From: a bacterium
Lineage (GTDB): Bacteria; DRYD01
Direction of reading: 5' to 3'
Assembly: GCA_039630415.1 (NCBI GenBank)
Contig: JBCNVB010000018.1
Span: 64,001-128,000, forward strand
Length of the DNA: 64,000 nucleotides
Part shown: positions 36,001-45,000 of the stretch, one piece after another
How the letters are laid out: each line of letters starts with the position of its first letter
Position numbering within the stretch: the stretch's first letter is position 1
Program-made: the position numbers

Positions 36001-39000
36001 TCTTTTGCGCTGAAAGAGGGATAGAGAAGGTTTATTAGCTCGTCCTGGTTTACACTTTTCCCTTCTGGGTGTATAACAATTTGATCACTTCCTACTATTA
36101 TTCGGTACTCGTTATATTGTGCAAATCCTTCTTGAATAAATTTAGTTGTTTCATCCTGTATATTTCCCTTCCAAAGAATCGTAAGCACCAAGTGGGATAT
36201 TTCGTGAGGTAATACCCTCTGCACTAAGAAATGATCCCTTTCATGAGCATATATAGCACAAGTAGAAGCATTATAATCGAATATGAACGCACCAGATGAC
36301 CAATCAGGAATCAAGTTATATGCTTTGTAAATTTCATCGTCAGGGGCTAAATATATAGGAATTTTACCTATTCTAGAAAATTCCGAAATAGATAAATTCA
36401 CAAATGAAGCAATCGAATCTACATAAAAATCTAACACATTCCTTAGAATTTGTATAAGCTGATTGTTGGTATAGTAAACCTTAAAGTATTTGGTTTCAAC
36501 TACTTTGTAATCAGAAGCTAAATTTTGATTTAGATATCCCTTATTGATATCTTTCTTCGGGATATCTGGAATTTTATGTCTATAAATCGTATTTAGGTCT
36601 ATTATGCCTGTTTCAAAATTCTTCGTGAGAATTAACTGATCTTTGTAATCATTACATATTTGATCAAGCAAATATTTTCTTTTTTGTGGATTATAGTACT
36701 TTTCAGGTTGGTATATTTTTACTTTTTTGTTTATGATTTCCAACACTTTTTTATCAATCCAAACTGCTTGATTCTCAACTATAAAAAGGGATTTATCTAT
36801 GGGAATATTAAAAATATATAGCATTAAATGTTTGGATGATATTACTATGGGGAATACGAGTAAAAATATCAATAATGCCCTTATCATAAACCTTTTGTAC
36901 ACCTAGTATTTTTGTACACCTAGTATTTTAGGATAGAAAAGAAAGTATAGTCTTTAATTTTTTCTCTTCCATTTAGGAAAGATAGTTCAATTATGAAAGC
37001 AAAACCTGTAACAACACCCCCTAGATTTTCAACAAGTTTCTTGGTAGCTTCAGCAGTTCCACCAGTAGCTATAAGATCATCAACTATTAATACTTTTTCA
37101 CCTGGTTTGATTAGGTCTGTATGTATTTCTAGAACCTCTTCTCCATATTCTAGTTGGTAGGCAGCAGATAATTTTTCGGAAGGTAGTTTTCCCTGCTTCC
37201 TTACAGGTACTATTCCCGCTGAAAGCTTGTAAGCTATTGCTGAACCTATTATATATCCCCTAGCTTCTATTGGAACTACTATATCTATTTGCCTATCTTT
37301 GTAAAAGTCTGATATGGTATCTACTACATATTGAAAAGCTTTCTTATCTCTTAGTAAGGGTGTAATATCTTTGAAGTTGATTCCCGGCTTTGGGAAATTG
37401 GGTATCTCTCTTACCAAACTTCTGATGTAATCTAAAGTAGTTTGACTCATTTGTTTACCTCCCTTTGTTAGCCTTTATTCCTACATAATAATTATTCAAC
37501 ATTGTACAAAAAAAATCCCTTTAGTTAGTTTGCATAGGGAGGATAAGGTTTTTAGTTGTAGAATAGTAAGTAGTAGGGGCCCCTAGCTCAACGGCAGAGC
37601 ATGCGGCTCATAACCGCAGGGTTCTAGGTTCGAATCCTGGGGGGCCCACCTCACAAAGTGATAATACCTATAAACCATCCCATAGCACAAATAAAACTCT
37701 CCATCCTAAGAGATAAAAACACAAATCCAGACCTATTTAGAAAATCACTAGAAGAATTATCTTACATATTCGTATTCTATTGCTTTGAAAAAGCAGAATT
37801 AGAAACATTAACTATTCAAACCCCCTTAGACGAAACCATAGGTTTTAAACTCAAAGAAAAATACATTATAATACCTATCCTACGAGCAGGACTAGGACTC
37901 CTACCCGCATTCACAAAACTTATACCAGATATTATTGTCGGAATAATAGGATTATCCAGAGATGAAAATACATTAGAACCTACACAATACTACACAAATC
38001 TACCATCCAACCTATCTGACTTCGTTGCGATAATTTTAGAACCCATGATAGCAACAGGAGGAAGCATAAGAAAAGCAATAGAAATACTCATACAAAGAAA
38101 AGCACAAAAAATTAAAGTCTGCTCCATAATCGCATATGAAAAATCTATAATAGAACTGAATGAAAAATTTCCTTTTGTAGAATTTTTCGTTCTTTCAATT
38201 GATAAATCTCTGAACTCACGAGGATATATAGTTCCTGGTCTGGGAGATGCCGGAGATAGAACTTTCGGCACACTCATAAACTCACAAGTATATATAAAAG
38301 GTAATCAATATTAAGGACCAATTCTTGTAACAGACAGATTATCTAAAAAGTCCCTTATCTTATTTATTAACTCTTCCCTATCACTTCGATTATCTCTATA
38401 AAATTTTTCATCAGTTTCAACAATCATTATAGGGATATTTAGGTTAAACTTGTTGTGGCAAAGGAATTCATCATAGTATTTATTTAAGCCTCTTATATAA
38501 TCAATGCTAATACCATCACGCTGTAATTCTATTTCTCTCGATCTTTGAAGTATTCTTTGATAAAGAGTTTCAGGTTTAGCTCTCAAGTATAGAATAAAGG
38601 TAGGCTTTTTTAATAATTTTTCAGTTAGAAAATCAAACCACTTAGTATAACTTCTCCACTCCCTATCATTCATATAACCATGTTCATATAAATACCTAGC
38701 AAAGACATACCTATCTGAATAAACAGACCTTTCTAAAAGTAGATTTTCAGTCGTGTTACTCTGCGCTTCCATATGTCTTATAGCTCTTATAGTGAAAAAT
38801 TCCCACTGAGTAGAGTAAGCCCATCTTTTTTTATCTTGATAAAACAAATCCAGAAAATTATTTTCATACCAAGGTTCATCAACAGGTAAAAAACCCAATT
38901 CCTGAGAAATAATGTTTAAAACCGTAGTTTTGTAAGCCCCTATGTTTCCATCAACTACTGCAAACACTCTACATCCCCCCATCTTCTACCACTTCCTTTT

Positions 39001-42000: not shown

Positions 42001-45000
42001 TGATAACTTAAATTTAGACCTAATCTTTTTCTTCTCAATATATCGTAGATATTCATTCTGTTGTATTTTCCCAAGGGAAAGTATTGTGATCTACAGTAGT
42101 AGTAGTTTGCGCTTGTTGTTGCGTATTATTATTTCTTGTAACTTCAGTTTGGTAATTTTGGTTATTTTCGTTTTGATTAGTTGTTGTTTGTTGAATCTTA
42201 TTATTTTCTATTGACTTGGTTTCCTGTTGAGCAGATTGTTGATCTATTTTTACAAAACTAGGTTTTGATTTTTGGGGTTTATAGTATTTGTAGCAAGCCA
42301 GGATAGATTTTCTCCATATTTCCACTGGCAAGGTAGCCCCATAGACATTATACAGTGGGCTATAATCATCATTTCCTACCCATACCACGCAGGTAAAATC
42401 ATCGGTAAATCCTGAATACCAAGCATCCCTATGATCACTAGTAGTACCAGTTTTACCGTAACAGTTTATGCCTTCTATTCTAGCGTTGTAACCAGTTCCT
42501 CTGTCTACCACTGCTTTCATAAGATCTCTCATATCCTTTGCTACCTGATATGGTAGTACTCTTTCGTATTTTTCTTTATGATAAAACATTATTCCTCCAT
42601 ATCTGTCCTCCACTTTGTAAACAAACTGTGGCTGTATAATATATCCATAGTTTGCTATTACACTTGTCAAAGTAGCTACTTCTAGGACTGACAATACAGA
42701 AGATCCCAAAGCAGTGGACAAATATGGTTCTAGATTAGATTTTACCCCCATTTTTTTAGCTGTTTCTATCACTTTATCTATCCCTATTTGACTTGATAAA
42801 TATACAGCGATAGTATTTCTAGAAAAAGCGAAAGAATCTATTAAGCTCATTCTACCCCAATATTTACCATCCCAATTAACCGGCGAATAAGAGCTAGTAC
42901 CACTTCCATAGGTATACAATCTATCATAAACTACTGTGTTAGGGGAAAAACCATTTTCAAGAGCAGCTGTATAGACAACTATTTTAAATACTGACCCTGG
43001 TTGCCTATAAGCTTGATAAGCCCTGTTAAACTGATCAGAGATTCTATATTCGTATCCTCCAACTAAAGCAAGTACTCTTCCAGTGTAATTTTCTATAACT
43101 ACTACAGCAGCCTGATTTACATTATTAGCTTTCCTATTTTTATCTATTTCTTCCTTAACAATCTTTTGGATATCTTGTTGGATTCTTGTGTCCAAATTTA
43201 GATAAATTCTTAGCCCCATGGTTTTTAAATACTCATTATCAACATCAGTAATTTTCTTGAAATTTTGTACCACATAGTTGACATAATATGGATATAACAC
43301 ATTATTTTGATCAAGTGTTTCTCTTTTTAGCCTTATTGGATACTCTACATATTTTTTGTATTCTAAAGGTGATATGTATTTAAGTTCAAGAAGCCTTCTT
43401 AGCACGTATAATTGCCTTTTACGAGCCATCTTGTAGTTTATGTAAGGCGAGTAAACAGAAGGAGCTGGTAGAAGACCAATTATCATTGCCGCTTCAGGTA
43501 TGTTTAGTTGGGACACAGATTTGGCAAAATATACTCTTGATGCTGCCTCTATTCCATAAGCTCCTTCCCCAAAGTATACTAGATTCAAATACATTTCCAT
43601 TATTTCCTGCTTGGAAAAACTTTTTTCTAATTCAACAGCTAGAACAGCTTCCCTTATTTTTCTTCTAATACTAAGCTCAGGACTTAGGAAAAGTATTCTA
43701 GCTAACTGCTGGGTTATAGTACTTCCTCCTTGGGTAACTTGCTTATTCAATGCTATGTCTATGATACTCCTCACTACAGCTATAAAATCCACCCCTCTAT
43801 GTATATAAAATCTTTCATCCTCAGAAGCTATAAGGCATATTTTTACTGAATTTGGTATACTAGATATTGGAACCCAATATCTATTTTCAACGTATAATTT
43901 AGCTACTTTTTGACCATCTAGAGAAAAAAACTCACTTGATTGAACCGGTATTTTTTTCCTTATCTGTTTAACATCAACTACATCCTTTTGGGCTTCCTTT
44001 ATTAATCCCAATACAAAGTAAGTTACAAAGAAAACACATACAATAATCAAAAAGGCTATTACCTTGAATATTCCTACTATCAAACTAATGATTTTTCTTA
44101 GCATAAGAAATGAATACAGGTATAAGCTTTTCGAAATTTTTTCTACAATATTTCTTTGCTAATCTGATATATACATGAACTAGCACTTTTTCGGGTATTT
44201 GAGAAGCTTTTATTTCACAGTATAGTAGTAAAAGCAATGCTCTTTCCATATAATTCATAACAAAATAATCTGATCTGTATATAATTTCCCATACCCCCTG
44301 GTTATATTTATGGTAGTTTTCAATCAAATTACCTAGTACTTGTCTAAAGTAAGTAGAAAGGTATAAAGGAAGAAAAAACTTTTGGTAGTATAGAAACTGA
44401 AGGACCGTTCCTAGAGCAATTTCTCGTTGGTATTTTTGAGAATATTTCTGATTATCTTTTGATAGTTGGCTCGACATTATATTTTCTCATTAAATCACTT
44501 ACCATTTTTTGAATATCTTTTTCATCCCTATCTACCAGGATAATTTGAATGGTAATTTTTCCATTTTCCACTTTAGCTCCTACAGCCTCCATAAGAATTA
44601 AGTTATGGTATATATCGTTTATCATTTTTTGTGTTTTATCATCTATATTTGCCTCGATTCTCATTATGGCGTGTTTGTAGTTATTTTTTATGGTATTGTA
44701 GTATTCTTCGAGTTTATCCATAGAGTATACAAAAGGTGGAATTTTAAACTCCATAGTTGCTTTTAGCTGAGCATCCTTCTGTACTTGCCCAATAGGTTGC
44801 TTTTCTTGTTTTTGTGTTTGATCAGTCTGGATTGTTTGCTGTGGAGTTTGTTGTACAGTTTGTTGTGGAGTTTGTTGTACAGTTTGCTGTGAATTATCTT
44901 GAGTTACATCCACTAAAACCTTAACTCCTGCTATAGTAGTTTTATTTTTGCCTGTTTTCTTAGAATAGTAAAGAGCTTCGTCAGCTGCCTTTATTATTTC

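Follow-up and report, generated by a model that had tools for sequence, protein, structure and literature searches.

How does a bacterium replicate its DNA when its genome holds no recognizable enzyme for making deoxyribonucleotides? The question is raised by a stretch of 64,000 nucleotides (the window) from a genome of the Calescibacterota (Calescamantes/EM19), in which several genes of nucleotide salvage lie close together. To our knowledge, ribonucleotide reductase (RNR) is thought to be necessary for the supply of DNA building blocks in every free-living cell. The genome-wide survey's note on this locus had claimed that the genome and its whole order lack every class of RNR and both thymidylate synthases, and must obtain their deoxyribonucleotides from outside. 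Searches at the levels of order, class and phylum all return the same 11 genomes, so that the absence, which is borne out below, extends to the phylum. All 11 are metagenome-assembled genomes (MAGs) with estimated completeness of 71-90%, and they are related, so that genes missed in one are not missed independently in another. One of them, G000, has 42 tRNAs covering all 20 amino acids. We consider it probable that RNR and thymidylate synthase have truly been lost, and that these bacteria obtain their DNA precursors by salvaging DNA and deoxynucleosides from the environment.

The salvage cluster and its deoxynucleoside kinase

The survey had placed an apt-upp-dNK-pdp cluster at 36920..42056. 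All four genes are present (Table 1), but a gene for an M48 peptidase also lies inside, and the end given falls 18 bases short of the TTG start of the pdp reading frame. The peptidase has no evident role in salvage and appears unrelated to it; HtpX models score it at no more than 145 bits, under their cut-offs, and in G007 pdp directly adjoins dNK with no peptidase gene between. The upp and dNK genes are convergent with a 4-base overlap, and are neighbours again in G004, G005, G006 (two copies), G008 and G009; apt adjoins the pair in all of these except G005. The pdp product, which passes the curated TIGR02644 cut-off and matches all three domains of the enzyme, is predicted to interconvert thymidine or deoxyuridine plus phosphate with the free base and deoxyribose-1-phosphate. 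The gene was found in four of five genomes searched, the exception being G010 (73% complete).

Table 1. Positions of the salvage genes and of an orphan radical-SAM gene; the first five lie in the window, the others on contigs of G000
Feature	Position	Strand	Evidence
apt, adenine phosphoribosyltransferase (purine base salvage)	36920-37450	-	TIGR01090 226 bits (cut-off 186), NF002633 238 bits, PF00156
upp, uracil phosphoribosyltransferase (pyrimidine base salvage)	37658-38314	+	PF14681 200 bits; TIGR01091 216 bits (cut-off 208)
dNK, deoxynucleoside kinase, dCK/dGK/Dm-dNK family	38311-38982	-	PF01712 167 bits, E 8e-49
M48/HtpX-like zinc peptidase, 577 aa	39000-40733	-	PF01435 105 bits
pdp, pyrimidine-nucleoside (thymidine) phosphorylase	40737-42074	-	TIGR02644 474 bits (cut-off 409); PF00591, PF02885, PF07831
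deoC	C19 58510-59409
deoB	C17 34567-35790
TK	C10 141901-142500
NupC	C10 170195-171502
PNP	C6 6655-7497
cdd	C5 175503-175961
SNase-type nuclease	C8 35020-35598
5'-nucleotidase	C2 7176-8624
NrdG-like radical-SAM protein	C5 80175-80771		intact CxxxCxxC and GGEP motifs

The kinase gene, reported by the survey from five of five genomes, proves to be present in all 11. Its product covers profile positions 2-202 of 203 in PF01712 (166.6 bits against a cut-off of 27), and its closest solved structures are human dCK (2a2z, 90 bits), dGK (2ocp) and Drosophila dNK (1j90). Identity is 68-88% within the phylum and at most 37-40% to any outsider, a pattern that fits an essential gene. The protein shares with the dCK/dGK/Dm-dNK family its full-length Pfam match, the ERS motif, the LID arginines and the substrate-site Glu and Gln, all of them invariant in the alignment (E31, R80 within ERS, R138, R142 and R144 among the invariant residues); the roles of the catalytic Glu and of the ERS and LID arginines are those that we take to hold for the family. 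It departs from the family in its Walker A motif. The canonical form is GxxxxGK[ST], whereas 12 of 12 phylum sequences read GNIGAYK[ST]T, with Tyr in place of the usual second Gly; GK is found in all seven aligned outgroups. A shorter segment after the catalytic Glu and a 3-residue insertion in the LID likewise mark every phylum member and none of the seven outgroups. Since the Walker A motif is non-canonical, activity is not assured. We propose that dA, dG and dC would be channelled through this enzyme on their way to dNTPs.

Searches for ribonucleotide reductase and thymidylate synthase

None of the 11 genomes matches class III RNR (PF13597) or the ATP-cone/NrdR domain (PF03477), and none has an R2 protein (PF00268) over the cut-off, a single R2-like reading frame in G006 scoring a sub-threshold 26-27 bits. 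The large subunit (PF02867) matches in one genome only, G004, which repeats the survey's counts for both PF13597 and PF02867. In five genomes, neither PF02867 at a relaxed E<=10 nor the glycyl-radical domain (PF01228) was detected. We also built an HMM on 82 NrdJ homologues and ran it with all filters off against the 5799 six-frame reading frames of G000; it found no RNR barrel there, the best score (15.6 bits) being to no more than a zinc-ribbon motif. A tblastn search gave nothing under E 1.5.

The lone PF02867 match sits on a contig of 2989 bp (G004:C65), for which the survey had noted 91% identity to an Endomicrobiia-labelled protein. The contig is 94.8% identical in DNA, over its full length, to one labelled Endomicrobia, with 98% identity in the protein. 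Its tRNA-Lys/nrdJ synteny recurs in four further Elusimicrobia MAGs, on contigs of up to 264 kb, and its tRNA finds at best an 81% match over 54 nt in G000. Considering the whole-length identity and the shared synteny, mis-binning of Elusimicrobia DNA is the better explanation for the contig, so that every class of RNR appears to be absent from the phylum, as the survey had claimed for the order.

The losses are not limited to RNR. Neither ThyX (PF02511) nor ThyA (PF00303) matches in any of the 11 genomes, where the survey had covered five. PyrF, PurD, dUTPase and DHFR each gave 0/5, one weak PurD match being SucC; the lack of de novo purine and pyrimidine synthesis, first noted in G000, is thus extended to five genomes by one marker for each pathway (PurD, PyrF).

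Could RNR and thymidylate synthase be present and yet missed in every MAG, because they are carried by a plasmid, lost in binning with an island of unusual composition, or left in unassembled DNA? We think this unlikely, although several observations speak for it. The genomes are incomplete MAGs, and a separate replicon carrying both functions would evade binning in all 11; the Borrelia nrdEF genes lie on linear plasmids, according to an excerpt of PMC10121223. An RNR contig has been mis-binned once in this very set, so binning errors do occur around such genes. Moreover, a control on Synechococcus elongatus gave no match for PF02867, PF13597 or PF00268 and did match the ATP-cone, so the searches may have a blind spot, perhaps for monomeric RTPR-type class II enzymes; the filter-free check covers G000. 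Against this, the same MAGs yielded 42 of the 44 possible occurrences of four single-copy salvage genes (dNK, TK, deoC and deoB), compared with 0/11 for RNR if the mis-binned contig is discounted. Genes linked to RNR in function and normally found at other loci are gone as well (NrdR/ATP-cone, ThyA, ThyX, dUTPase and DHFR), and some of the assemblies are contiguous (20 contigs for G007, 31 for G000). The product of (1 - completeness) across the 11 genomes is 1.6e-9, a figure to be read with the caution that misses in related MAGs are not independent.

Possible routes to deoxyribonucleotides

If the losses are real, the retained genes suggest how DNA might be made. The deoB gene is found in 11/11 genomes and deoC in 10/11 (it is missing in G008), the same counts as in the survey; a true TK is found in 10/11, with only a weak match in another protein in G004. 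NupC is present in five of five genomes and ComEC in four of five, and G000 also has udk, two cmk genes, ndk and a tmk-like protein (72 bits, below its 83-bit cut-off). A crude motif screen gave no match for adk or gmk. The eight salvage genes that the survey had located elsewhere in G000 are all at the places it listed (Table 1); the SNase-type nuclease and the 5'-nucleotidase among them have N-terminal hydrophobic, signal-like segments and are putatively exported.

We picture Calescibacterota, which are aerobic heterotrophs of hot springs at roughly 80 °C, as having lost RNR, thymidylate synthesis and de novo purine and pyrimidine synthesis, and as building DNA from scavenged deoxynucleosides. 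The SNase-type nuclease and the UshA-like nucleotidase would degrade environmental DNA to deoxynucleosides, to be taken up by the NupC-type transporter; the ComEC channel may also admit DNA strands. With substrate ranges as predicted, dC, dA and dG would be phosphorylated by the dNK of the window and dT by TK, and dNTPs would be reached via (d)CMP kinase, the dTMP-kinase-like protein and NDK. The products of pdp, PNP, deoB, deoC and cdd would shuttle deoxyribose-1-phosphate among bases and burn the excess, if flux runs in the presumed direction, and apt, upp and udk would supply the ribonucleotide pool. The survey's conclusion that deoxyribonucleotides must come from outside is an inference, firm for thymine or thymidine. 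For deoxyribose it is weaker, since a full chain of deoC, deoB, phosphorylase and kinase has been kept.

That chain leaves a small chance that deoxyribose is synthesized through reversed DERA. Glyceraldehyde-3-phosphate and acetaldehyde would be joined to deoxyribose-5-phosphate (deoC) and converted to deoxyribose-1-phosphate (deoB), then to deoxynucleosides (pdp, PNP) and to dNMPs (dNK, TK), with only the bases, thymine included, being scavenged. The genes of the chain are retained (pdp in four of five genomes, PNP and cdd in G000, the others at the frequencies given above), and alcohol dehydrogenases described from Calescamantes are a possible link to acetaldehyde (PMC4791363). The excerpted text of PMC10121223 adds that the pathway can run backwards in vitro and has long been debated as an RNR alternative, and that RNR-less Ureaplasma, Borreliella and Buchnera Cc, like evolved RNR-free E. 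coli, lose deoB and often cdd. We nevertheless regard the reversed pathway as quite improbable. Catabolism of plentiful scavenged DNA for carbon, nitrogen and phosphorus fully explains the same genes, none of which is peculiar to synthesis, and acetaldehyde is scarce and toxic. The strongly selected RNR-free E. coli did not recruit the reverse route, in the same excerpt, and without thymidylate synthase DNA-derived thymine would be required regardless. Just as improbable, in our estimate, is the fuller claim that a respiring, non-parasitic, hyperthermophilic phylum without RNR meets some or all of its need for deoxyribose by synthetic use of deoC, deoB, phosphorylase and kinase while scavenging only bases; if true, it would be the first natural case of the long-hypothesised RNR-independent path to DNA precursors.

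The survey had also raised, as a caveat, a conserved NrdG-like activase with no known partner. This radical-SAM protein was found in four of five genomes searched. It scores below the cut-offs of the NrdG models (TIGR02491, 99.6 against 126.1; TIGR02495, 31.5 against 131; TIGR02826, 38.6 against 151.7), and no NrdD appears among the 12 largest neighbour clusters at 55 loci of its relatives. PF13597 is lacking from all 11 genomes as well, and the protein does not look like a class III RNR activase. Instead, 33 of these 55 loci hold an AAA_2-type ATPase, and AAA+ ATPases recur beside the relatives together with PP2C and with giant Ser/Thr kinases that give defence-like PADLOC matches. The setting resembles that of a system for conflict or signalling, and the caveat is largely removed. 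That an unrecognised reductase built on this protein and its AAA+ partner replaces RNR is hardly credible: the motifs are intact and the partner is encoded two genes downstream of deoC in both G000 and G007, but the deoC adjacency is missing in G003 and G010, the neighbours suggest conflict or signalling, the glycyl-radical domain is absent from five of five genomes, and the missing thymidylate synthase is left unexplained.

Comparison with known RNR-less systems

A literature search found no earlier account of RNR-less Calescibacterota. Excerpts of PMC2795772, PMC10121223 and PMC9531940 are in line with the survey's statement that only host-dependent organisms are known to lack RNR; the first two list parasites or endosymbionts as the exceptions, and a host is needed in every case listed up to 2009 and in 2023. 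As those two describe them, Ureaplasma, Borreliella burgdorferi and Buchnera aphidicola Cc resemble the present case in lacking all RNR classes and relying on deoxynucleoside kinases and TK, but they are parasites or endosymbionts that have lost deoB and mostly lost cdd. Giardia, Entamoeba and Trichomonas are also fully dependent on salvage through dNK-family and TK1-family kinases (PMC11662666, PMC9190010, PMC2187479, all in excerpt); they are, however, eukaryotic gut or mucosal parasites supplied by a host, Giardia with specialised high-affinity kinases. E. coli deprived of all three RNRs, fed deoxynucleosides and given a Mycoplasma dAK shows that a transporter and a dNK-family kinase can suffice, yet under scarcity the evolving line sheds deoB and cdd (PMC10121223, in the part cited), whereas the natural lineage keeps both.

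Calescibacterota differ from the host-dependent bacteria in their presumed way of life, too. From published descriptions, Calescamantes are aerobic heterotrophs of streamer communities (PMC4791363, PMC11696919), and these respiring hot-spring organisms make up ~7-11% of an 82-84 °C community; the free-living habit that we ascribe to them is taken from such papers. The usual loss of deoB and cdd is not seen, and deoC, pdp and PNP are kept along with them.

What would salvage dependence mean for these organisms? If true, a phylum of abundant, O2-respiring hot-spring heterotrophs lacking both RNR and thymidylate synthase would break the rule of host dependence, and would show that DNA supplied by a community can replace a host. 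It would help to explain the lineage's resistance to cultivation, and would suggest that media be supplemented with deoxynucleosides or DNA. A natural system would also be at hand for testing whether the deoxyriboaldolase pathway makes DNA precursors in vivo, as well as a deoxynucleoside kinase that is thermostable and has an unusual P-loop.

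Probable loss of ribonucleotide reduction and thymidylate synthesis

The genome of the window (G000, in which the window is C10:64001-128000) comprises 1.40 Mb in 31 contigs at 89% completeness, and belongs to the Calescibacterota (Calescamantes, EM19). The same 11 genomes, which span two families and three genera, came up at the levels of order, class and phylum; the class and phylum searches, intended as an outgroup contrast, gave no sister group bearing ribonucleotide reductase (RNR), and the comparison is one of 11 genomes. A C-terminal part of reverse gyrase, a marker of hyperthermophily, lies at a contig end in G000 (C14:700-1785, locus L118; TIGR01054, 256 bits), adjoined by a dTMP-kinase-like gene, and agrees with a hot streamer habitat. 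Calescamantes are described as heterotrophs that possess a TCA cycle, heme-copper oxidases and respiratory complexes and account for about 7-11% of a streamer community at 80-84 C (PMC4791363, PMC11696919).

The genome-wide survey's note had claimed that every RNR class and both thymidylate synthases are missing, and the searches bear this out. Class III RNR (PF13597), ThyA, ThyX and the ATP-cone were found in none of the 11 genomes, and the lack of an ATP-cone means that NrdR is likewise absent from all 11. R2 (PF00268) had no match above cut-off in any of them, and PF02867 matched in G004 alone, on a contig that appears foreign (see below). In five genomes (G000, G007, G002, G003 and G010), PF02867 gave no match at E<=10, and the glycyl-radical domain, dUTPase and DHFR were not found. 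The same five lack PyrF, and also PurD, since the weak PurD matches are succinyl-CoA ligase beta (SucC); with one marker for each pathway, the claimed absence of de novo purine and pyrimidine synthesis holds in these five. An HMM built from 82 NrdJ homologues, run with all filters off against 5799 six-frame ORFs of G000, reached a top score of 15.6 bits on a zinc-ribbon motif only.

Several weak candidates were rejected. The top NrdJ-HMM match is a CxxC zinc ribbon next to a RimO/MiaB-like gene, and isoleucyl-tRNA synthetase accounts for a weak Gly_radical match in G000 (E 0.08). A ferritin-like ORF of 177 aa in G006 (C7; L103 1453-1983) scores 26-27 bits on the R2 model, below the cut-off of 33.6; it is truncated by the contig end, has a restriction-modification-like neighbour and lacks a homolog in G000. 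In a control with Synechococcus elongatus, the ATP-cone was matched while PF02867, PF13597 and PF00268 were silent, either because the models miss its type of RNR or because it was lost in a first-look filter; monomeric class II RNR outside G000 is therefore covered only to the reach of PF02867.

Salvage genes and the cluster in the window

The survey's proposal of deoxynucleoside salvage is likewise supported by the genes retained. Deoxynucleoside kinase (dNK) and deoB occur in all 11 genomes, true thymidine kinase (TK) and deoC in 10 of 11 each, NupC in five of five, and pyrimidine-nucleoside phosphorylase (pdp) and ComEC in four of five each. G000 also carries PNP, cdd, udk, NDK, two (d)CMP kinases and a dTMP-kinase-like protein below its cut-off, along with an SNase-type nuclease and a UshA-like 5'-nucleotidase whose hydrophobic, signal-like N-termini make them predicted candidates for export. 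Nucleoside deoxyribosyltransferase (PF05014) was rejected as a general part of the scheme, being above cut-off in G010 alone (1/5).

The main rival explanation is that RNR and thymidylate synthase reside on a replicon missed by all bins. The cost of MAG incompleteness to genes really present in this set can be gauged from four single-copy salvage genes, which were recovered in 42 of 44 genome-gene cells, and multiplying (1 - completeness) over the genomes gives 1.6e-9, although both figures exaggerate independence because the genomes are kin. We consider a missed replicon unlikely but not negligible, and true absence remains our preferred reading.

Two further arrangements concern the salvage genes of G000. 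The NupC gene is split across contig ends (C10:170966-171502 and C6:1-105), which shows that C10 and C6 adjoin in the genome and places PNP (C6 6655-7497) about 7 kb from NupC. At C2:7176-10227, a uridine kinase (TIGR00235, 249 bits) and the candidate exported 5'-nucleotidase, about 1 kb apart, form a second small salvage cluster.

Within the window, the ORF listing places five genes in 36920-42074, named from Pfam and NCBIfam.

Genes of the salvage cluster, in window coordinates
Gene	Position	Strand	Basis
apt	36920-37450	-	Pfam/NCBIfam
upp	37658-38314	+	Pfam/NCBIfam
dNK	38311-38982	-	PF01712, 167 bits
M48/HtpX-like peptidase, 577 aa	39000-40733	-	Pfam/NCBIfam
pdp	40737-42074	-	TIGR02644, 474 bits

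The four salvage genes proposed earlier as an apt-upp-dNK-pdp cluster are all present, but the cluster also contains the peptidase, which is not a salvage gene and interrupts it as an unrelated insertion; pdp and dNK are direct neighbors in G007. Within the genus of G000, upp and dNK remain paired, often together with apt (G004, G005, G006 twice, G008 and G009), and no such pairing within 1.5 kb was found in the other two genera. The two copies in G006 (L088 on C11 and L094 on C133) are 85-87% identical to that of G000, and probably reflect a bin in which two strains or species are mixed.

The dNK proteins of the phylum form a tight clade (66-88% identity), with the nearest outsiders at 37-40% and human dCK, human dGK and Drosophila dNK as the best solved relatives. 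Throughout the alignment the proteins keep the catalytic Glu, the arginine of the ERS motif, those of the LID and the Gln that binds the base. The substrates may be dCK-like: dC, dA and dG. In all 12 phylum sequences the Walker A motif is GNIGAYK[ST]T, versus GK in seven of seven outgroups; the protein of the window has DGNIGAYKTT near its N-terminus, with Tyr for the second Walker A glycine. Two further features mark the clade: the stretch that follows the catalytic Glu is shortened, and the LID carries an insertion of 3 residues.

A lone reductase contig and an NrdG-like protein

The single PF02867 match lies in G004, a genome placed in the same genus as G000, on a contig of 2989 bp (C65) that carries a class II NrdJ (NF006417, 1012 bits) and a tRNA-Lys. 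Over its whole length, non-coding DNA included, this contig is 94.8% identical to a contig of 9.3 kb from a MAG labelled Endomicrobia. Elusimicrobia contigs as long as 264 kb encode NrdJ proteins 79-88% identical to its own; they share the tRNA-nrdJ arrangement and, in two cases, a tRNA 96% identical; the top match of the tRNA in G000 is 81% over 54 nt. By these comparisons the RNR is judged foreign and mis-binned, as the survey's link to Endomicrobiia had implied, and the near-equal GC (0.31 versus 0.32 in G000) accounts for the mis-binning. Upstream palindromes resemble NrdR boxes, which is weak evidence; despite them, an ATP-cone protein is absent from G004.

A radical-SAM protein of 198 aa resembling NrdG (G000:C5:80175-80771; L110:2176-2772, minus strand) is present in four of the five genomes searched. 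It scores 100 bits on PF13353 and 99.6 on TIGR02491, under the cut-off of 126, with the CxxxCxxC and GGEP motifs intact. Its neighbors are inconstant: in one genus it lies with glyQ and a Ser/Thr kinase, in another with a MurF-like ligase. The 540-aa gene adjoining it in G002 and G003 is that ligase and not NrdD. An identity as QueE was rejected, with no match to any QueE model and true QueC in none of five genomes.

Relatives of this protein were analyzed in 55 of 80 metagenome loci (L120-L199), the other 25 having been left out by eye as too short (mostly under about 4.5 kb, a cut not strictly uniform). In 33 of the 55, including all nine closest relatives, an AAA_2/ClpB-D2-type AAA+ ATPase of about 600 aa lies directly upstream and is translationally coupled. 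No NrdD was found among the 12 largest neighbor clusters, and PADLOC gave defense-candidate matches for the ATPase and the kinases. We read the protein as a member of a kinase-regulated system rather than as pointing to a concealed class III RNR; the set of radical-SAM, AAA+, PP2C and kinase genes is undescribed, and defense-like or signaling in character.

Giant Ser/Thr kinase/helicase genes and PP2C occur near these relatives, a very large Ser/Thr-kinase protein in 26 of the 55 loci and PP2C in six. In G000, the ATPase (50% identity; C19:60101-62179) lies two genes past deoC, the row being deoC, an ORF of 249 aa that weakly matches phosphoribosyltransferase, and the ATPase (C19:58510-62179; L095, L200); this order is present in G007 and absent in G003 and G010. 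One locus, a 231-kb sediment-metagenome contig (L181), has the MurF-like ligase and a 276-aa radical-SAM gene ordered as in G003, and is probably a long stretch of Calescibacterota DNA from a different habitat.

A proposed DNA-scavenging lineage

In the literature searched, mostly outside subscription journals, no paper ties Calescamantes or Calescibacterota to ribonucleotide reductase, and no free-living RNR-less prokaryote is reported. The replacement of RNR by salvage has precedents; the novelty lies in the setting, in its reach across the phylum and in the deo genes that are kept.

The simplest reading is that the lineage is a DNA scavenger. The nuclease and nucleotidase would act outside the cell, NupC would import the deoxynucleosides, and dNK and TK would trap them, while the phosphorylase, deoB and deoC branch would shuffle and burn the sugar. 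By keeping deoB, deoC and cdd, the lineage departs from what is described for RNR-less parasites and for evolved RNR-free E. coli (PMC10121223). Plentiful DNA serving as food accounts for this retention; a bolder alternative, that reverse DERA supplies the deoxyribose, we regard as quite improbable. The lineage needs external thymine or thymidine, since both thymidylate synthases are absent.
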